Of a stretch of 64,000 bases of DNA, positions 3,033 to 62,268 are shown in pieces. The notes under the pieces are model-generated. The model was not told the origin of the DNA. It searched no databases and saw only the letters and a program-made list of their open reading frames with translations. Positions within the stretch are counted from its first letter, which is position 1. Each line of letters opens with the position of its first letter. The DNA comes from Actinomycetota bacterium (GTDB lineage: Bacteria > Actinomycetota > Thermoleophilia > Solirubrobacterales > 70-9), in NCBI GenBank assembly GCA_046729615.1, contig JBKPHA010000029.1:12742-76741 (forward strand), written 5' to 3'. The position numbers were made by a program, and so were the translations under genes.

Positions 3033-3677
3033 ATGGTCATCGCGATCGACGGCCCAGCGGGCGCCGGAAAGTCGACCGTCGCGAGAGGGGTGGCGGACGC
3101 TCTGGGCTTCACCTACCTCGACTCCGGCGCCATGTACAGATGCGTCGCTTTGGCCGCGCTGCGTGCGGGCGTGGACGTCGACCACGGACGGGCGGTGGGC
3201 GAGCTCGCGAGCGCAATCCGGATCGAGCCGGCGGACGGGCGCGTGCTGCTGGACGGCGAGGACGTCACGCAGGCGATCCGCGCGCCCGAGGTCACAGCGG
3301 CCGCGTCGCGAGTGTCCGTTCATCCGGCGGTGCGTCAGGCGATGGTCGCGCGGCAGCGTGCCCTGATCGAGTCCGGCGACTACGTCGCGGAGGGTCGCGA
3401 CATCGGCACCGTGGTCAGCCCGGACGCTCCGCTCAAGGTCTTCCTGACCGCCTCGCCCGAGGAGCGGGCATGGCGCCGCGCCGCCGAGACGGGGGAGGAG
3501 TTCGACGACGTGCTTGCGGCGCACTCGGGGCGAGACGCCCGGGACCGCGAGCGCGAGCATGGCGCACTGCGGCCGGCGAGCGACTCGGTCGAGATCGACA
3601 CGACCGGTCTCGAAGTCGGCGAGGCCACGTCGCGCGTCGTCGCACTCGCGCGCGAGCGCGGGCTGGTAGAGCGGTGA
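3033..3677 (+). CDS. cmk: cytidylate kinase
   Basis: MVIAIDGPAGAGKSTVAR P-loop, followed by LDSGAMYR. Confidence 0.9.
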   Translation: MVIAIDGPAGAGKSTVARGVADALGFTYLDSGAMYRCVALAALRAGVDVDHGRAVGELASAIRIEPADGRVLLDGEDVTQAIRAPEVTAAASRVSVHPAVRQAMVARQRALIESGDYVAEGRDIGTVVSPDAPLKVFLTASPEERAWRRAAETGEEFDDVLAAHSGRDARDREREHGALRPASDSVEIDTTGLEVGEATSRVVALARERGLVER

Positions 3678-3903
3678 CTCCTCCCACGACAGCACACCTC
3701 ACCCGCCTGCAAACCTTCACCAGCCGGCGCGGCGCCTCCGGCGCCGACGGCATCCATGCCTACTCGCTCGCGCACCTTTCAGGTGCGCCACGCTCACTGC
3801 GTCCTTGCCTGACTCGGGACGCGGGCTATCGCCTGCGCCACCGTTCGCCATCCATGGCTCACTGGCCGGCTGAGGCGCACTGCCGCGGAAGGAGGCACCG
3901 CTG
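3671..3903 (+). repeat. structured intercistronic repeat, copy A (diverged, with an insertion)
   Basis: Shares the core GCGCGGCGCCTNCGGCGCCGACGGCATCCNTGCCT..TCGCTCGCG-hairpin-CCACGCTCNCTGCGTCNTTGCCTG with 14667-14861 and the reverse complement of 32969-33163. Terminal inverted repeats are 3671-3684 and 3888-3901. Confidence 0.8.
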
Positions 3904-13149: not shown

Positions 13150-14438
13150 GCCGCGACCACGTCGCGCCCGCCCGGCGCGCCGCCTACGAGGTCCTGCGGC
13201 GGGTCTTCGAGCACGGCGCCTGGGCCGACCGCGCGTTTGCGGCCGCCGCCGAGCGCCATCGCCTCGACGAGCGCGAGCGCAGCCAGGCGCAGCGCCTGGC
13301 TTATGGCGCCGTCCAGCGACGCGGAACCACCGACCGCCTTACCTCGGAGCTCGCGGGCCGGCCCGTGGCCCGGCTGGATCCGCCGGTGCTTGCCGCCCTG
13401 CGACTGGGGCTGTATGAGCTCCTGTTCTCCGATGCGACACCCGCGCATGCGGCGGTGGACCAGGCCGTCGAGTTGGCGAAGGGCGGGGGCGGCAAGCGGC
13501 GCCGCGCCGGCGCGTCGCTGGTGAACGCGGTGCTGCGTCGCGCCGCAGCGGGCGGCGACCTGCTCGCCGAGCTCGACGACTCAACGCCCGAGGGGGCGGC
13601 AACGCGTCATTCGTTTCCGGAGTGGCTCGCGCGGATGTGGTGGTCGGAGCTGGGCCCGGAGGATGCACGTTCCCTGATGGCGGCGCTGAACGAACCCGCC
13701 GAGACGGCGCTCCGGGTCAACACGCTGAAGGCCGACCGCGAGGCGCTCATGACGGAGCTCCGGGGTGGCGGCGACCGGATCGACAGGCACGGCTCCGGGC
13801 TGCTGGGGCCGCCGGAGGCCCTGGTCGTGACCGGGTCGCTGACTGAGCGATTGCGGGCCCGCATCGACGCTGGCGAGCTCGTGCCCCAGGCGCGCGGCTC
13901 GCAGGCGGTTGTCGCGGAGCTCGACCCCCACCCGGGCGAGCGGATCCTCGACCTCTGCTCGGCGCCCGGCATCAAGACGACCGCGATCGCCGCGCGAATG
14001 AGCGACTCGGGAGAGGTGGTCGCGGTCGATCGGGATCCCGGTCGAGCTGCGCAGCTCGGCGCGCTGTGCGCGCGCCTCGGCGTCACATGTGCGCGAGTCA
14101 TCGTCGCGGATGCCACGGAGGACGACCTGGGCGGCGGCTACGATCGCGTCCTCGTGGATCCACCGTGCTCCGATCTCGGGACGCTGGCCTCGCGGCCGGA
14201 CGCTCGCTGGCGCAAGTCGCCCGAGCTGATCGAGCGCCTGTCGGGGTTGCAGGCCAAGATCCTGCACCGGGCGCTGCAGGCCGTGAGGCCGGGCGGAACG
14301 CTCGTCTACTCCGTCTGCACTATCTCGCGGCGCGAGGGCCCAGATCAGGTCGAGTCGCTCCGAGCCCGATCCGTGCAGCTTCGCCCCGATCGCGACCGAA
14401 CCGACGGGTTCTTCATCGCCCGGCTGGAGCGCACCTAG
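13146..14438 (+). CDS. rsmB: 16S rRNA (cytosine967-C5)-methyltransferase (NusB-like N-domain plus SAM methyltransferase)
   Basis: Follows fmt. DLCSAPGIKT, VDPPCSDLGT and YSVCT motifs. Start taken at ATG 13146, overlapping the fmt stop. Confidence 0.85.
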   Translation: MSRDHVAPARRAAYEVLRRVFEHGAWADRAFAAAAERHRLDERERSQAQRLAYGAVQRRGTTDRLTSELAGRPVARLDPPVLAALRLGLYELLFSDATPAHAAVDQAVELAKGGGGKRRRAGASLVNAVLRRAAAGGDLLAELDDSTPEGAATRHSFPEWLARMWWSELGPEDARSLMAALNEPAETALRVNTLKADREALMTELRGGGDRIDRHGSGLLGPPEALVVTGSLTERLRARIDAGELVPQARGSQAVVAELDPHPGERILDLCSAPGIKTTAIAARMSDSGEVVAVDRDPGRAAQLGALCARLGVTCARVIVADATEDDLGGGYDRVLVDPPCSDLGTLASRPDARWRKSPELIERLSGLQAKILHRALQAVRPGGTLVYSVCTISRREGPDQVESLRARSVQLRPDRDRTDGFFIARLERT

Positions 14439-14669
14439 ATGGCGACCGGGGACGCCACGCTCAAGCGGCCCGCATGCCCCGGCTGTGGTGAGCCGTGGCT
14501 TCGGCCCACTCAGCTTCCTGGCCGCTACCGCTGCGTCTACTGCCTGCGGCGCTACGAGCTCGTCTCGCAGTGCCCGAACTGCGGCGAGCATCAGACGATC
14601 GTCCGCATGAGCACCTCCGAGGACCTGCTCTGCCAGCATTGCGGCCACTCGATGCTGCGCCCCGTTTAG
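14439..14669 (+). CDS. small double zinc-ribbon protein (four CxxC pairs), function unknown
   Basis: 76 aa with CPGC, CVYC, CPNC and CQHC. ATG directly abuts the rsmB TAG (TAGATG). Confidence 0.5.
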   Translation: MATGDATLKRPACPGCGEPWLRPTQLPGRYRCVYCLRRYELVSQCPNCGEHQTIVRMSTSEDLLCQHCGHSMLRPV

Positions 14670-14861
14670 GTGGTACCTCCGCCGACGCTGCACCGCAAAC
14701 GGCGGTCCCAGGCGCCGTCATGCTGCGCGGCGCCTACGGCGCCGACGGCATCCCTGCCTGGTCGCTCGCGTGGGATCATGCACGCCACGCTCCCTGCGTC
14801 GTTGCCTGACGGCGCCTGTGCCTCGCCGTTTACGGCACACCGTCACCGGAGGCACCACTAG
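14667..14861 (+). repeat. structured intercistronic repeat, copy B (best-preserved archetype)
   Basis: Fills the whole junction between the zinc-ribbon gene stop and the rpe ATG. TIRs at 14667-14687 / 14841-14861. Helices at 14697-14704/14824-14831 and 14709-14720/14807-14818. Hairpins at 14729-14743 and 14768-14785. Collinear with the reverse complement of 32969-33163. Confidence 0.85.
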
Positions 14862-32426: not shown

Positions 32427-32951
32427 ATGGCAGCGGGATATCACAGCGTCGATCTTTCGCGGCTCGCGCTCCGGCCCGGCTCGGGCCGGCGCCTCGACCT
32501 GGGCGTGGATCCGGGCGAGCTCGACCTCGGCGGGCAGCGCTATTCCGTGCGCGGCCCGACTGTCGATGCGCGGCTCGACCTGTCGCGCACCGCGGCCGGG
32601 TACGCGATCCGAATGCGGTTCGTCGCGCACGTCGACGGGCCCTGCATGCGCTGTCTTGCGGACGCCGACGTGCCGGTCGAGATCGACGTCCGGGAGGTCG
32701 ACCAGCCTCGCACGGCCGACGAGGAGCTCATGAGTCCCTACATCAACGAGGACGAGCTCGAGCTGGCGCGCTGGGCCCACGACGCGCTCGCCCTCGCGTT
32801 GCCGTTCCAGCTGCTTTGCCGCCCGGATTGCAGGGGGCTATGCCCGGTCTGCGGCATCTCGCTGAACGACGTCGATCCCGCCGAGCACCGCCACGAGGCC
32901 GAGCCCGATCCGCGCTGGGCGGAGCTGCGCGAGCTGAAGCTCGATCAGTGA
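32427..32951 (+). CDS. yceD: YceD/DUF177 family protein (23S rRNA accumulation protein)
   Basis: CMRCLADADVPVEIDV and LCRPDCRGLCPVCGISLN motifs. Canonical position upstream of rpmF. Start chosen at ATG 32427. Confidence 0.8.
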   Translation: MAAGYHSVDLSRLALRPGSGRRLDLGVDPGELDLGGQRYSVRGPTVDARLDLSRTAAGYAIRMRFVAHVDGPCMRCLADADVPVEIDVREVDQPRTADEELMSPYINEDELELARWAHDALALALPFQLLCRPDCRGLCPVCGISLNDVDPAEHRHEAEPDPRWAELRELKLDQ

Positions 32952-32968
32952 TCCCCCGACCCTCCGGC

Positions 32969-33163
32969 CTAGCGGTGCGTCGCACGACGGTGTGCCGGAA
33001 ACGTCGAGGTCCAGGCGTCACCAGGCAAGGACGCAGGGAGATTGGCGTGCATGACTGCACGCGAGCGACCAGGCATGGATGCCGTCGGCGCCGTAGGCGC
33101 CGCGCAGCATTGCGACGTCTGGGGCCGCCGTTTCGGGTGCAACGTCGTGTGACGTACCGCTAG
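32969..33163 (-). repeat. structured intercistronic repeat, copy C (opposite orientation to flanking genes)
   Basis: The reverse complement is collinear with copy B over its full length. 21-nt TIRs at 33143-33163 / 32969-32989 with 2 mismatches. Hairpins at 33087-33101 and 33045-33062. Both ends lie in CTAG. Confidence 0.85.
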
Positions 33164-33175
33164 CCTTACGCCCTT

Positions 33176-33397
33176 ATGGCCGTCCCCAAGAAGAGAACCT
33201 CGCGCGCGCGCCGCGACAAGCGGCGGGCCACGCACAAGGTCAGCGCGCCCCGCGTCAACGAGTGCCCGCGCTGCCACAGCCCGCGACTGCCGCACCGCGT
33301 GTGCCCGACCTGCGGCACCTACTCGGGCCGCGAAGTGATCGAGCACGAGATCCGCGAGGCGGCACCCCGGGAGACGGCTGCCGGCCCGGAGGAGTAG
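33176..33397 (+). CDS. rpmF: 50S ribosomal protein L32 (with C-terminal extension)
   Basis: MAVPKKRTSRARRDKRRA...CPRCHSPRLPHRVCPTCG. Confidence 0.9.
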   Translation: MAVPKKRTSRARRDKRRATHKVSAPRVNECPRCHSPRLPHRVCPTCGTYSGREVIEHEIREAAPRETAAGPEE

Positions 33398-37995: not shown

Positions 37996-38988
37996 ATGGC
38001 TCGCACCTGGCACGAGGTCGTGGATCTGGACGACGGCGCCGTCCCGTCAACCCCCCACGAGGCAGAGGGGCCGCAGCACACGGGGATCTTCCGGCGCCTT
38101 CGCGACTCGTTGTCCAAGAGCCGCCAGGCTCTCCAGGCCGAGCTCAGCGCCTCCCTGTTCGAGCGGCTCGACGACGAGACGTGGGAGCGGCTGGAAGAGG
38201 CGCTGGTCCTCGCCGACGTTGGCGCGAAGACGACCGCCGACGTAGTCGGACGGCTCGAGCATGAGGTGGAGGCCGGCGCCGTGGGCGGCGGCGAGGACCT
38301 CCGGGAGCGCCTCGTGGAGATGCTCGCCGAGGCCGCGGCGACCGAGGATGGCCGGATCCGCCTGAGCAAGCGCCCCGCAGTCGTGATGATCGTGGGTGTA
38401 AACGGCACCGGGAAGACGACGACGATCGGCAAGCTCGCCTGGCATCTCCAGAGGGAGCTCGGCCTGTCGGTGATCGTGGCGGCCGCCGACACCTACCGCG
38501 CCGCGGCGATCGAGCAGCTTGAGACGTGGGCCGAGCGCGCGGGCGCAGAAATCGTCCGCGGCGCGTCGGGCGGCGATCCTGGCGCGGTGGTCTTCGACGC
38601 GATCACGGCCGCCGAGTCGCGCGGGGCGGACGTCGTGATCGCCGACACTGCCGGCCGACTGCATACGCACGCGAACCTGATGGAGGAGCTCGCCAAGGTG
38701 CGGCGCGTGGCCGCCAAGCGTCTGGAGGGTGCGCCGCACGAGTCGCTGATCGTCATCGACGCCACCACCGGGCAGAACGGGCTCCGCCAGGCGCAGGCCT
38801 TCACGCAGGCGGTCGACCTGACCGGCGTCATCCTCACGAAACTCGACGGGACGGCGAAGGGCGGCATCGCGCTCGCGATCGCCTCTGAGCTCGGGCTGCC
38901 GGTGAAGCTGATCGGGACCGGCGAGGAGCTCGAGGATTTAAGGCCGTTCGACCCGAGAGAGTTCGCAGCCGCGCTGCTGGGGGACTAG
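37996..38988 (+). CDS. ftsY: signal recognition particle receptor FtsY
   Basis: VGVNGTGKTTTIGKLA, DTAGRLH and TKLDGTAKGG motifs. Start chosen at ATG 37996. Confidence 0.9.
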   Translation: MARTWHEVVDLDDGAVPSTPHEAEGPQHTGIFRRLRDSLSKSRQALQAELSASLFERLDDETWERLEEALVLADVGAKTTADVVGRLEHEVEAGAVGGGEDLRERLVEMLAEAAATEDGRIRLSKRPAVVMIVGVNGTGKTTTIGKLAWHLQRELGLSVIVAAADTYRAAAIEQLETWAERAGAEIVRGASGGDPGAVVFDAITAAESRGADVVIADTAGRLHTHANLMEELAKVRRVAAKRLEGAPHESLIVIDATTGQNGLRQAQAFTQAVDLTGVILTKLDGTAKGGIALAIASELGLPVKLIGTGEELEDLRPFDPREFAAALLGD

Positions 38989-40493: not shown

Positions 40494-41831
<1,338 letters not shown>

Positions 41832-58313: not shown

Positions 58314-58368
58314 CGCCAGCGTGGCTCCCCTGGCAGGCGAGCGGCGCCCGGCGCCGAATCACGTTGCC

Positions 58369-59289
58369 ATGAGCGTCGATCCGGATAAAGCGTCCATGAG
58401 CCCGGCGTGGGAGGCGACGCTGGCGGACTTTCGTCGCGAGCTCGAGCGACGGGGATCCTCGAGGCACACGATCAGGGCCTACGGCGGCGATCTCGCGGAG
58501 CTGGCCGCGTGGGCCACGGATCACGGCAGTGAGCCGGGAACGCTGGCGTACCGCGACCTGCGCTACTACGCCGCCGCACTCTCGGAGCGCGGTCTCGCCC
58601 GCTCCAGCGTCGCACGCAAGCTCGCCGCCGTCCGAACGCTCCACGATCATCTGACGCGATCGGGCGAGGCCGCTCAGAACCCGGCCCAGCTCCTTCCGAT
58701 ACCGAAGCGGGCGGGTCGACTGCCGCACGTGCTGGGGCCCGGAGACGTCGCGAGGCTCCTCGACCGGATTCCGGCTTCGGGGCCGCTCGAGATCAGGGAT
58801 CGCGCGATGCTCGAGCTGGCCTACGCCTGCGGGCTGCGCGCCGAGGAGATCATCAACCTGGATTGCGACGCCGTCGATTTCGACTCGGAGACCCTGCGGG
58901 TGACCGGCAAGGGACAGAAGACGCGGATCGTGCCGATGGGGGAGCCCGCCCAGCGCGCGCTGGACCGCTACCTCAGGCATGCCCGCCCCGCCCTCGCCAC
59001 GGACCTTCGTTGCCGGGCACTGTTTCTGTCGCGCCGGGGCCGCCGACTCTCGACCTCGGACGTTCGCCGGCGCCTGGACCGCTGGGTGCGGGAGGCGGCC
59101 GTAGCGGGCCACGTCTCGCCGCACACGCTGCGCCACTCGTTCGCAACCCACATGCTCGAGGGCGGCGCCGACTTGCGCTCGATCCAGGAGCTGCTCGGGC
59201 ACTCGAGCGTCTCGACGACCCAGGTGTACACCCGCGTGGAGCCCGGCAGGCTCCGGCGCGAGTACTCGCGGTCCCATCCACGAGCCTGA
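58369..59289 (+). CDS. xerC: site-specific tyrosine recombinase XerC/XerD
   Basis: RDRAMLELAYACGLRAEE, HTLRHSFATHMLEGGADLRSIQELLGHSSVSTTQVYT. I cannot separate XerC from XerD. Start uncertain (58321 or 58369). Confidence 0.85.
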   Translation: MSVDPDKASMSPAWEATLADFRRELERRGSSRHTIRAYGGDLAELAAWATDHGSEPGTLAYRDLRYYAAALSERGLARSSVARKLAAVRTLHDHLTRSGEAAQNPAQLLPIPKRAGRLPHVLGPGDVARLLDRIPASGPLEIRDRAMLELAYACGLRAEEIINLDCDAVDFDSETLRVTGKGQKTRIVPMGEPAQRALDRYLRHARPALATDLRCRALFLSRRGRRLSTSDVRRRLDRWVREAAVAGHVSPHTLRHSFATHMLEGGADLRSIQELLGHSSVSTTQVYTRVEPGRLRREYSRSHPRA

Positions 59290-59335: not shown

Positions 59336-60115
59336 ATGGAGACAAACGTCAAAGCTGTCGAGCTTCGAGAGCTCTGGCGACGCTACAAGGAGGAGGGGGA
59401 CGACCGCGCGCGGGAGCGGCTGGTGGTCGCCTACTCGCCGCTTGTGAAGTTCATCGCGGGCCGGATGGCGTCTGGCCTCCCTTCCCATGTCGAGGAGGCC
59501 GACCTCATCTCCTACGGCCTCCTCGGCCTGGTCGGCGCGATCGAGCGCTTCGACCTCGAACGTGAGATCAAGTTCGAAACATTCGCGGTGGCGCGCGTTA
59601 AGGGCGCGATCATCGACGAGCTCCGCTTGCTGGACTGGGTGCCGCGATCGGTGCGGGCGCGTGCCCGCGACGTCGAGAAGGCGCACGCCGAGCTCGAGGC
59701 CGAGCTTCAGCGCGCGCCCACCGACGAGGAGATGGCCGCAAAGCTCGGTATGGACTTCGATGAGTTCAACGACTCCCTGCTGGAGATCGCGAACTCCTCG
59801 GTGCTGGCGCTCGACGACCTGTGGACGTTCGCCGATCCGGATGGCGGCGGCGGGACCTCGGTTCTCGACACGATTCATGACCCCAACGCGGTGGACCCCG
59901 AGACCGAGGCGCAGGCGGCCGAGCTCAAGGACCGGCTCGCGGACGCGCTCGAGGCGCTGCCGGAGCGCGAGCGGCTGGCGGTCGCCCTCTATTACTACGA
60001 AAACCTCACGCTGCGGGAGATCGGTGAGGTCCTGGGGGTGACCGAGTCGCGCGTCTCGCAGCTCCACACGAAGGCCGTCCTCGGGCTCCGCTCGCGGTTT
60101 CAGGCCCGGCCGTAG
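59336..60115 (+). CDS. RNA polymerase sigma factor, FliA/WhiG (sigma-28) family
   Basis: Region 2 (DLISYGLLGLVGAIERFD...FETFAVARVKGAIIDELR) and region 4 (LTLREIGEVLGVTESRVSQLHTKA), with family-typical length. Confidence 0.8.
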   Translation: METNVKAVELRELWRRYKEEGDDRARERLVVAYSPLVKFIAGRMASGLPSHVEEADLISYGLLGLVGAIERFDLEREIKFETFAVARVKGAIIDELRLLDWVPRSVRARARDVEKAHAELEAELQRAPTDEEMAAKLGMDFDEFNDSLLEIANSSVLALDDLWTFADPDGGGGTSVLDTIHDPNAVDPETEAQAAELKDRLADALEALPERERLAVALYYYENLTLREIGEVLGVTESRVSQLHTKAVLGLRSRFQARP

Positions 60116-60174: not shown

Positions 60175-62268
60175 GTGGGGCACAAGGCAGCCGACCGCAT
60201 CCGGAACGTTGCGCTGATCGGCCACCGGGGGAGCGGCAAGACGAGCCTCTGCGAGGCTCTTCTATTCGAGGCGGGGGTCATCAACCGCCTCGGCCGCGTC
60301 CAGGATGGGTCGACGGCCTCGGACTTCGAGTCCGACGAGCAGGAGCGCTCGATGTCGATCGGGGCGAGCGTGGCCTCGTTCGAGTACGCGGATCGAAAGG
60401 TCAACCTGATCGACACTCCGGGCGAGCCGTCGTTCATCGCCGACACGATCGCCGCGCTGCGGGTCGTCGACGCCGCAGTCGTGGTGGTCAATGCGGTGAT
60501 GGGAGTCGAGGTCCACACCGAGCGGCTCTGGGAGCGCGCTGACCGCGAGGGGCTCGCCCGTCTCGTCTTCGTCAACATGCTCGACCGCGAACGGGCGGAC
60601 TTCTTCCGCTCGCTCGACTCGCTCAAGGAGGCATTCGGGCCGCACGTAGTCGCGACCGAGGTCCCGATCGGCGCGGAGCACGAGGTCCGTGGTGTCATCG
60701 ACCTGATCGACATGAAGGCGTTCACCTACGAGGGCGAGGGGCGCGGGAACGCCACTGAGGGGGAGATCCCAGACGAGCTGCGCGAGCAGGCGCAGGAGTA
60801 CCGCGAGAAGCTGATGGACGAGGTCGCCGAGAACTCCGACGAGCTGATGGAGCGCTACCTCGACGGCGAGGAGATCTCGCACACCGACATCGTCACCGCG
60901 CTCAAGCAGGGCGTGACGGAGGGCCACCTGTTTCCGGTGACATGTGGTGTCGCCACCCACAACCTGGGCACGAACCGGCTGCTCGATGCGTTCGTCGAGG
61001 ACGTGCCGTCGCCGGCGATGCGGGGCGCGGTCCGCGCGCTTGACCCTGACGGCAACGAGATCGAGATCGAGCCCGCCGAGGACGCGGATCTGGTCGCCTA
61101 CGTCTTCAAGACGACCGCGGACCCGTACACCGGGCGCATCAACCTTCTCCGCGTGTACTCCGGCGTCCTGGGATCGGACTCGCAGGCGTTCAACGCCACG
61201 CGCCAGTCGAAGGAGCGGATCGGGCAGATCGCGGCGCCCCGCGGGAAGGAGACGTCGCCCGTGGACGAGCTCGGGCCGGGCGACATCGGGGCGGTGGCGA
61301 AGCTCCGGGAGACCCAGGCCGGGGACGTCCTTGCCGACAAGGACAGCGCCGTCTCGTTCCCGCCGCTCGACCTGCCCGCGCCGGTGAGGGCGTTCGCGTT
61401 CGAGCCAAAGTCGAAGGGCGATGAGGAGAAGGCGGCGAGCGCGCTGCGTCGCCTTACCGAGGAGGACCCGACCCTCGACGTCCACCGCGATCCCGACACC
61501 GGCGAGCAGATCATCGCCGGCCTCACGCAGGTCCACGTCGAGGTCGTCACGGAGAGGATGAAGCGCCGCTACGGCGCCGAGATCGAGCTCCACCCGCCAC
61601 GCGTGCCGTACTTGGAGACGATCCGAAAGCCGGCGAAGGGGCACGGCCGCTACAAGAAGCAGACCGGTGGGCGAGGGCAGTTCGGCGACTGCCACATCGA
61701 GATCGAGCCGGTGGAGGTCGGCTCGGGCTTCGAGTTCGTAGACGCCATTAAGGGCGGCGTCATCCCGAGCGGGTTCATCCCGGCAGTGGAGAAGGGAATC
61801 GCCGAGGCGCTGCAGCAGGGGGTCCTCGCCGGCTATCCGATGAAGGACCTAAAGGTGACTCTTCGCGACGGCCAGCACCATTCCGTCGACTCCTCGGAGA
61901 TGGCGTTCAAGATCGCCGGCTCGCTGGCGTTCAAGCAGGCCGCGGCGGAGGCCGATCCGTACCTGCTCGAGCCGATCGTGCGGATGACGATCACTGTGCC
62001 GGAGGAGAACGTGGGGGACGTCGTCGGAGACCTCAACGCGCGGCGAGGCCGGCCGATGGGCGTGGAGCCGAAGGGGTCGATGACCGAGATCAAGGCCGAG
62101 CTGCCGATGGCCGAGGTGCTCGACTACGCGCCGGACCTGCGGGCGATCACGGGCGGGCGCGGCGATTACACGATGGACTTCGAGCGCTACGAGGAGGTCC
62201 CGAGCCACATCGCGCAGAAGGTCATCGCCGAGGCGCAGGCGGCCGAGGAGGAGAAGGTCAGGGCCTGA
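60175..62268 (+). CDS. elongation factor G paralog (EF-G-like GTPase)
   Basis: NVALIGHRGSGKTSL P-loop (non-canonical compared with AHIDAGKTT), DTPGEPSF, NMLD, and EF-G domains II-V. Confidence 0.85.
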   Translation: MGHKAADRIRNVALIGHRGSGKTSLCEALLFEAGVINRLGRVQDGSTASDFESDEQERSMSIGASVASFEYADRKVNLIDTPGEPSFIADTIAALRVVDAAVVVVNAVMGVEVHTERLWERADREGLARLVFVNMLDRERADFFRSLDSLKEAFGPHVVATEVPIGAEHEVRGVIDLIDMKAFTYEGEGRGNATEGEIPDELREQAQEYREKLMDEVAENSDELMERYLDGEEISHTDIVTALKQGVTEGHLFPVTCGVATHNLGTNRLLDAFVEDVPSPAMRGAVRALDPDGNEIEIEPAEDADLVAYVFKTTADPYTGRINLLRVYSGVLGSDSQAFNATRQSKERIGQIAAPRGKETSPVDELGPGDIGAVAKLRETQAGDVLADKDSAVSFPPLDLPAPVRAFAFEPKSKGDEEKAASALRRLTEEDPTLDVHRDPDTGEQIIAGLTQVHVEVVTERMKRRYGAEIELHPPRVPYLETIRKPAKGHGRYKKQTGGRGQFGDCHIEIEPVEVGSGFEFVDAIKGGVIPSGFIPAVEKGIAEALQQGVLAGYPMKDLKVTLRDGQHHSVDSSEMAFKIAGSLAFKQAAAEADPYLLEPIVRMTITVPEENVGDVVGDLNARRGRPMGVEPKGSMTEIKAELPMAEVLDYAPDLRAITGGRGDYTMDFERYEEVPSHIAQKVIAEAQAAEEEKVRA

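Follow-up and report, generated by a model that had tools for sequence, protein, structure and literature searches.

The window (the whole stretch of DNA that was analysed, 64,000 nucleotides in length) contains a spacer of 224 nt between yceD and rpmF, which holds a hairpin-forming repeat here named copy C. The features of this locus are listed below.

32427-32951, + strand: yceD (DUF177; Pfam YceD), upstream neighbour of copy C
32969-32972: left CTAG of copy C, the duplicated target site (TA at 32970-32971 alone, or all of CTAG)
32969-33020: left arm of copy C, pairs with the right arm
32972-33160, - strand: copy C, 189 nt (covariance-model match at 32964-33163 on the + strand, 193 bits)
33021-33111: conserved core of copy C, a variable hairpin with compensatory changes and two small invariant hairpins
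33071-33104: 34-nt block AGGCATGGATGCCGTCGGCGCCGTAGGCGCCGCG, invariant at 32/34 positions in six copies from four genomes
33112-33163: right arm of copy C, pairs with the left arm
33160-33163: right CTAG, second copy of the duplicated target
33176-33397, + strand: rpmF (ribosomal protein L32), downstream neighbour of copy C

The ends of copy C are inverted repeats of 21 nt. Positions 32969-32989 read ctagcggtgcgtcgcacgacg and the reverse complement of 33143-33163 reads ctagcggtacgtcacacgacg, with two mismatches, both of them G·T on the + strand. The outer ~10 nt of the left arm, GCGGTGCGTC, represent the terminal inverted repeat. The inverted termini and their position within CTAG, noted in the initial annotation, can be read directly from the sequence. 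The C-rich ('sense') strand of copy C is the minus strand of the window; the G-rich, better-folding strand is the plus strand and is co-directional with yceD and rpmF. The insertion target lies 17 nt past the TGA stop of yceD and is not a stop codon. Two further copies and one empty target are found in the window.

3670-3902, + strand: copy A, 233 nt, between cmk and der; distinct sub-family with an internal insertion (extra ~40 nt)
14435-14441, + strand: CTAGATG, empty target at the rsmB|Zn-ribbon junction, filled by a 240-nt copy in the relative L026
14670-14858, + strand: copy B, 189 nt, between the Zn-ribbon gene and rpe

Copies of the element and their flanks

Over 190 nt, copy C matches the reverse complement of copy B at 83% identity, in line with the inverted copy described in the initial annotation; the relation of copy C to copy A is more distant and runs via the common core. 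Two core probes gave exactly three matches each in the window, at 3731, 14729 and 33077 (minus strand), with about zero matches expected by chance according to shuffles. A covariance model run on the window with default filters scored the three copies at 174-194 bits and nothing elsewhere above 15 bits. Over all known copies the scores range from 174 to 202 bits, and anything outside the copies again stays at or below 15 bits.

Copies elsewhere were located at atpA|atpG in L003, after a hisC-like gene in L007 and at rsmB|Zn-ribbon in L026. The six copies occupy six different junctions in four genomes, and are 189-240 nt long; identities of 83-91% over 130-190 nt were found between copies. Two sub-families can be distinguished, A/L003 and B/C/L026. 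With respect to the flanking genes, the G-rich strand is co-directional in copy C and in L026, and antisense in A, B and L003. Copies B and C are present and unchanged in near-identical strains, and about 75 kb of DNA from the window's species (window, L080, L082) contains three copies. The G+C content of the element is ~69%, that of the host genome ~70%.

Further copies occur in soil metagenome contigs. Comparison with these contigs showed that other A-type copies begin to match at position 3670, and the stop codon TGA of cmk (3675-3677) lies inside the 5' end of copy A. The metagenome contigs compared by means of 60-nt end pieces gave no flank information. Many soil-metagenome contigs, some of high depth, match only a 47-nt part of the core (33024-33070) and then diverge (…GAGGACGCAG…); judging from these partial matches, related sub-families, or a module common to other elements, seem to exist. 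A scan of the genome collection with a 22-base core pattern returned 25 loci, 23 of which were chance or coding matches (GAPGADGI-type codons). No copy was found in the viral contigs and plasmids searched. Within the literature searched for Solirubrobacter MITEs and for the element sequence, no paper describing the element was found.

A 67-nt direct repeat of a different kind, at 38624-38690 and 41038-41104 (75% identity), is the paralogous SRP-GTPase motif of ftsY and ffh.

The flanks of five copies, with the element taken as G-YGGTRCC...GGYACCR-C, are as follows.

Copy C: left cTA, right TAg
Copy B: left tTAg (one extra G), right TAg
L026 copy: left cTA, right gtg (TAG missing; a 3-nt loss explains this)
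L003 copy: left aGA, right TAg
Copy A: left aGA, right TGg

TA abuts five of the ten ends, a sixth TA is displaced by one base, and three of the remaining four ends are one base away from TA. To judge from these five copies, TA at the ends appears to be far above chance in a genome of ~70% G+C. Six metagenome contigs end in ...GGTACCAC|TAG. Read as 4-bp flanks, the pairs are CTAG/CTAG in C, TTAG(+G)/CTAG in B, AGAG/CTGG in A and AGAT/ATAG in L003. A clean duplication is present in copy C only; in the L026 copy TA(G) is absent from one flank, B carries an additional G, and the flanks of A and L003 are degraded. Copy B is flanked by the stop codon TAG of the Zn-ribbon gene (14667-14669) and by a second TAG (14859-14861), which is followed directly by the ATG of rpe.

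These flanks modify what had been proposed in the initial annotation. Its TA flanks are found at both B and C, with the qualification that B carries an additional 5' G (tTAg|GTGG versus cTA|GCGG), and the tabulation of flanking dinucleotides that it advised gives the five abutting and one displaced TA mentioned above, with A, L003 and L026 imperfect. Removal of copy B together with one TA does yield gttTAGATG, the intact TAGATG at 14436-14441 between rsmB and the Zn-ribbon gene can be read directly, and copy A lacks TA flanks and carries the internal insertion, as had been described.

CTAG occurs 32 times in the 64-kb window versus 76 times expected; because it is rare there, the two CTAGs exactly at the ends of copy C are not due to chance. 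Duplications of 2-bp TA and of 4-bp CTAG are indistinguishable at copy C because the element starts with G and ends with C. The duplication may therefore be TA (IS630-like) or CTAG (IS5-like), copy C fitting both equally well. Tc1/mariner/IS630 elements insert at TA only. IS630 prefers TA within CTAG, as far as the work of Tenzen and Ohtsubo (1991) is cited in PMC2170065. IS5-group elements are common in actinomycetes, with 4-bp CTAG repeats as a typical feature (PMC9241763). Many CTAGs of the window fall on the TAG stop codons of real genes (e.g., 5265, 7370, 14435, 38985, 43088, 44327, 46186 and 58310). The TAG-stop targeting that had been suggested is better taken as a preference for CTAG/TA, sites that in this genome are located mostly at gene ends, and the target of copy C lies past a TGA; the association with TAG stops is best read as a by-product of CTAG/TA targeting.

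Filled and empty junctions

The orthologous spacers of relatives were compared with those of the window, and five junctions were seen both filled and empty. At yceD|rpmF, 16 contigs of relatives (YceD in the same 90% cluster) have a spacer of 33-35 nt without the element. Six of these (L054-L059) were read base by base, and for the other ten (L070-L079) a 35-nt spacer was derived from gene coordinates. The six contigs show CAGTGAcctgctcggcctgccgCTAGcatcacgcccttcATGGCC at the position where the window has ...ggcCTAG-(element)-CTAGcc.... Aligned from the end of yceD to the start of rpmF, they read CAGTGA-cctgctcggcctgccg-CTAG-catcacgcccttc-ATGGCC, with a single CTAG, and the window reads CAGTGA-tcccccgaccctccggc-CTAG-(187 nt)-CTAG-ccttacgccctt-ATGGCC, with two. 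A soil metagenome contig joins position 32951 to 33176 via 35 nt, CTTGGGTCACCGGCCGCTAGCATCACCCCGTTCAA, with one CTAG, and another contig joins them via 16 nt.

The junctions on the two sides of the Zn-ribbon gene are reciprocal, filled versus empty, between the window and L026. rsmB|Zn-ribbon is empty (ACN TAG ATG) in the window and in L060, L062 and L064, and is filled in L026 by a copy in the opposite orientation to the genes. At this copy (L026 2192-2215) the rsmB stop is lost, and rsmB reads five codons into the element (…METTWCLS*). Zn-ribbon|rpe is filled in the window by copy B and empty in L026 (TAACTAGCGATG). It is also empty in 29 further contigs of relatives, recovered via the Zn-ribbon gene, six of which were read at the junction; these empty contigs include L036, L043, L044 and L060-L069. 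cmk|der is filled in the window by copy A, and cmk and der overlap in L043. In L007 a copy occupies the spacer after the hisC-like gene; the orthologous spacer of the window's own species (L080) is without one.

A combined covariance-model and BLAST search of 517,867 bases in 40 loci, nearly all of it syntenic DNA of relatives (~0.5 Mb), yielded no copy besides the known ones in L003, L007 and L026. Because the junctions are empty and the DNA of relatives is without copies, the element is a lineage-restricted insertion and not an ancestral leader. The mobility of MITE type postulated in the initial annotation passes the test of empty orthologous sites which that annotation itself had named, with one CTAG left at the empty yceD|rpmF junctions. 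Its statement that the family is not simply a 5'-UTR leader agrees with the empty junctions and with the occurrence of copies in both orientations.

Several other features of these junctions were recorded. The Zn-ribbon gene (14439-14669) encodes 76 aa with four cysteines, lies between rsmB and rpe, and is coupled to rsmB by TAGATG. It has 596 homologues, the named ones being from Solirubrobacterales or from Actinomycetota MAGs; the gene is always found at the rsmB-rpe position in the contigs examined, under contradictory names (S27E, primosomal protein N'). In L003 (860-880), atpG appears to begin with ATA (GGAGGCACCGATAGCCACCCAG) after the element; either this is an unusual start codon, or the original start was disturbed by the insertion. 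The spacer upstream of DAHP synthase in L080 (6046-6320; same species, 7 kb to the left of the window) and in L007 (3950-4040) contains a conserved motif, tacaaaaCCcGGTCaATGAACCGCG, and L080 has there, in addition, an inverted repeat of its own with CTAG at either side (CTAGGCGTCCGG...CCGGACGCCTA). It is possible that this is a leader or attenuator with no relation to the element.

Fold, conservation and coding content

Each copy is predicted to fold into one long imperfect hairpin, in which ~50 nt of each end are paired and close a branched core (minimum free energies -100 to -125 kcal/mol; z-scores -3 to -7). An alignment of the six copies (A, B, C, L003, L007, L026) gave a consensus structure of 59 pairs with 91.8% of the cells paired. 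Nineteen pairs are changed on both sides versus 10.1±2.0 in column shuffles (0/500 reach 19), and with the partners slid by 1-3 columns only 2-7 pairs are changed on both sides.

The 34-nt block of the core consists of GGCATGGATGCC followed by GGCGCC-GTA-GGCGCC, i.e., two adjacent perfect mini-palindromes. It is also found on the other strand at 3725-3758 and 14723-14756, and it looks like a binding site. In the rest of the core 29/51 positions are invariant, in the arms 6/51 and 11/57. The arms are about 35-60% identical between the sub-families, roughly 40-60% when A/L003 is set against B/C/L026, and yet still complementary; those of L007 are 32-56% identical to the arms of the other copies. 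The outermost ~10 nt follow the consensus YGGTRCCTCC in five of the six copies. This pattern of conservation is the reverse of that of a classic MITE, as the best-kept part is internal and not terminal.

The G-rich strand (plus in C, minus in A and B) folds better than its complement by 20-33 kcal/mol in all six copies. Each 52-nt arm was also aligned to the reverse complement of the other arm without credit for wobble pairs. The transition mismatches counted in this way are G·T on the G-rich strand in 29 cases and on the other strand in two. Many of these mismatches are shared by descent within a sub-family, and the number of independent events is estimated at ~15 versus 2. The polarity tracks the element and not the direction of host transcription, and it points to selection or mutation bias on one single strand, either RNA or single-stranded DNA.

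Reading frames are not conserved between the copies, and indels shift the frames in six-frame translations. Copy B has a frame that is open from GTG to TAG; its conservation does not extend to A and L007. Used as the query of an exhaustive HMMER search, this 63-aa frame gave two weak matches only, the better of which (P0001) was rejected as a 156-nt tandem satellite on a 1-kb contig without DNA similarity. A six-frame pseudo-protein query against the protein collection gave no matches, probably because it was swamped by low-complexity words, and two short ORFs called by JGI inside the element had no matches in the same collection. ORFs of 29-33 aa called by JGI at 14720-14809 and 33036-33137 (L031 3282-3371; L029 672-773) are repeat artefacts without homologues.

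The whole window has 0 matches to Rfam at gathering thresholds, with only chance-level matches (E above 3) around copy C. Readings of the element as a hammerhead, attC site or retron were dropped, the motifs CUGANGA/GAAA and GTTRRRY being absent and Rfam silent. No promoter-like or terminator-like sites were found at B or C, and there is no T-run terminator. The ends of the element carry GGAGG reading outward: AGGAGG-8 nt-GTG in A (der GTG 3904), GGAGG-9 nt-ATG in B, GAGG-9 nt-ATG in L026, and AGGAGG-5 nt followed by the first codon of atpG in L003. Copy C has no such motif before the downstream start. The complementary CCTCC is situated at the opposite hairpin end and closely follows the stop codon of the upstream gene.

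Pfam scans and synteny tables revealed no transposase in the window, in agreement with the initial annotation, only housekeeping genes and a recombinase of XerC type. In the ~75 kb of the source species (window, L080, L082) neither an autonomous partner with matching ends nor a solitary element end was found. The gene of the XerC/XerD-type tyrosine recombinase (58321-59289) adjoins those of a WhiG/FliA-type sigma factor (59336-60115) and of an EF-G paralogue (60175-62268); judging by conserved synteny, all three are housekeeping genes, and the recombinase is not a mobile-element integrase.

Interpretation and comparison with known elements

Copy C is interpreted as the insertion of a non-coding, non-autonomous transposable element of ~190 nt, a bacterial MITE, with a probability of roughly 0.8. 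The element is small and non-coding, has terminal inverted repeats, TA at the ends, a target duplication and a long stem-loop, and occurs at filled and empty sites, in agreement with the operational definition of a bacterial MITE (PMC2229807). Its family is small and is present in a few Solirubrobacterales genomes; it is undescribed and of an otherwise ordinary kind. In the host, a soil actinobacterium, copy C entered a CTAG 17 nt downstream of yceD with duplication of TA or of the whole CTAG, and the other copies entered other operon junctions in either orientation. Movement would be in trans, by a DDE transposase that is encoded elsewhere in the genome and recognises the YGGTRCCTCC termini; such an enzyme should be IS630/Tc1-mariner-like if the duplication is TA, and IS5-group-like if it is CTAG.

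The landing of copies at gene ends might be explained by the survival of CTAG and TA mainly at TAG stops and in short spacers at ~70% G+C. Insertions in operons might be tolerated because the termini read outward as GGAGG-N8-9 and could thus provide a ribosome-binding site for the downstream gene. The hairpin would bring the upstream stop and the downstream start together, and a ribosome terminating on the upstream gene might melt the base of the stem and free the GGAGG. In the case in which translational coupling survives an insertion of 190 nt by these means, copies could persist inside essential operons. The near-invariant internal block might act in cis as a site recognised by the transposase or by a protein or RNA partner of the host.

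Two features, the invariant internal block and the strand-asymmetric hairpin, go beyond the plain MITE model, and the G·T strand bias is no prediction of a double-stranded cut-and-paste mechanism. Because of the strand polarity, a functional RNA cargo is kept as a possible reading and transposition by a Y1/HUH enzyme as a rival explanation. According to the former, which is tentative and rather doubtful, the element would be more than a selfish MITE, namely a mobile carrier of a functional single-stranded module. Selection would then act on the G-rich strand (RNA, or DNA of a transposition intermediate) for a wobble-tolerant stem of ~50 bp that presents the double mini-hairpin (GGCAUGGAUGCC / GGCGCCGUAGGCGCC), e.g., to a regulator or small RNA that binds at such dispersed sites, and the ends bearing Shine-Dalgarno sequences would rewire translational coupling at operon junctions.

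The rival explanation involving a single strand, which is unlikely, assumes a REPIN-like hairpin element moved by an HUH/Y1 tyrosine transposase of the IS200/IS605 or RAYT/TIRYT type, with the G-rich strand active and the two CTAGs representing the target and an element end and not a true duplication. The better folding of the G-rich strand in 6/6 copies (20-33 kcal/mol), the 29:2 ratio of G·T mismatches in the arms and the extension of one hairpin with compensatory changes over the whole element would be expected from such a mechanism, and RAYT-like genes flanked by long TIR families (PMC3733652) as well as REPINs as hairpin doublets (PMC3116915) are known. However, no end carries a GTAG or CGTC tag, the element is far longer than REPs or REPINs, TA is found on both sides in several copies, and the window contains no Y1 transposase. 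Moreover, CTAG is single where the element is missing and double where it is present, in register with the inverted ends.

That the copies are an immobile structured RNA conserved in place, i.e., a cis-regulatory leader or a small RNA, is very improbable. Strong folds with covariation (z -3 to -7), the nearly invariant core and, in A, B and L003, the pairing of a 3'-terminal GGAGG with a 5'-terminal CCTCC, as when a ribosome-binding site is sequestered, are what such an RNA would show; the copies, however, lie in both orientations relative to flanking genes that are unrelated, the same junctions are empty in close relatives, no Rfam family matches, and no RNA-seq run was found to contain the region. 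For an immobile RNA this explanation is contradicted; what is left of it is a mobile element from which a functional RNA is made as well. Palindromes arising by chance, or ordinary terminator hairpins that look alike, might be suspected in a G+C-rich genome with its many weak inverted repeats, but they are refuted by the 83-91% identity over 130-190 nt, by core probes with a chance expectation of zero, by covariance-model scores of 174-202 bits versus <=15 bits elsewhere, and by the lack of a T-run terminator.

Bacterial MITEs measure 100-200 bp, have TIRs, 5'-TA-3' ends and target duplications, and give rise to long stem-loop transcripts (PMC2229807). The insertion at yceD|rpmF resembles IS630/Tc1-mariner-derived MITEs such as RUP of Streptococcus pneumoniae, a 107-bp element for which mobilisation by IS630-Spn1 is assumed and which is also small, non-coding and multi-copy, with TIRs and TA duplication (PMC2229807). 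RUP is moved in trans (PMC2229807), whereas the present element is without an identified IS630-type partner. It differs from RUP in being G+C-rich, in having roughly double the length and in being conserved best in its interior and not in its TIRs, and its duplication may be 4 bp. Classic bacterial MITEs are A+T-rich, in contrast to the G+C-rich element described here.

Correia elements (NEMIS) of Neisseria share with it TIRs, a TA duplication and the location in operon spacers in either orientation, at a size of 100-155 bp, and they are co-transcribed as long hairpins, the long form having an internal IHF site (PMC2229807). They are unrelated in sequence, are A+T-rich and carry promoters, whereas the element of the window carries an outward Shine-Dalgarno-like GGAGG and an internal block made up of two G+C-rich mini-palindromes. 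The ERIC/YPAL elements of enterobacteria are likewise imperfect palindromes (127-168 bp), transcribed, intergenic, near stops and oriented either way, and strains differ in which sites are filled and which are empty (PMC2229807, PMC2759123). They differ in phylum and sequence. To our knowledge, a strand-asymmetric wobble pattern has not been described for ERIC/YPAL.

With IS5-group elements of actinomycetes, such as ISMysh01, and their possible MITE derivatives, copy C may have in common the 4-bp CTAG direct repeats at the insertion site (PMC9241763), being flanked by CTAG on both sides where the empty site has one. At the remaining copies TA accounts for the flanks no less well than CTAG. REPINs/REP-RAYT and TIR-TIRYT are also hairpin-forming, strand-specific, non-autonomous and dispersed between genes (PMC3116915, PMC3733652). 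Their tag, GTAG/CGTC at one end of a palindrome of 20-40 nt or of a doublet of such, is absent here; unlike REPs or REPINs, the element has (C)TAG-YGGTRCC ends and CTAG on both sides, and it forms one ~190-nt hairpin with a branched core. MIRUs of Mycobacterium, reportedly described by Supply et al. in 1997, are said to be actinobacterial repeats located within operons, with ends that overlap the neighbouring genes' stop and start codons. MIRUs are 40-100 bp in length, tandem-prone and of one orientation, and have conserved small ORFs. Copy B is MIRU-like in being exactly an open frame, GTG-TAG, between TAG and ATG; unlike in MIRUs, the frame is not conserved between copies, and the copies are single and in both orientations. 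The element is not a member of REP/REPIN, of the MIRUs or of an Rfam family.

A G+C-rich MITE family from the poorly studied and mostly uncultured order Solirubrobacterales is added by this analysis, together with clean insertion polymorphisms at core housekeeping operons. The element accounts for the unusual length of the yceD-rpmF, Zn-ribbon-rpe and cmk-der spacers, it represents a source of strain-level markers, and annotators should be cautious about calling ORFs of 29-63 aa inside it. In the case in which the invariant block and the one-strand wobble hold on the full set of copies, the family would be a test case for selection beyond the terminal repeats of MITEs.
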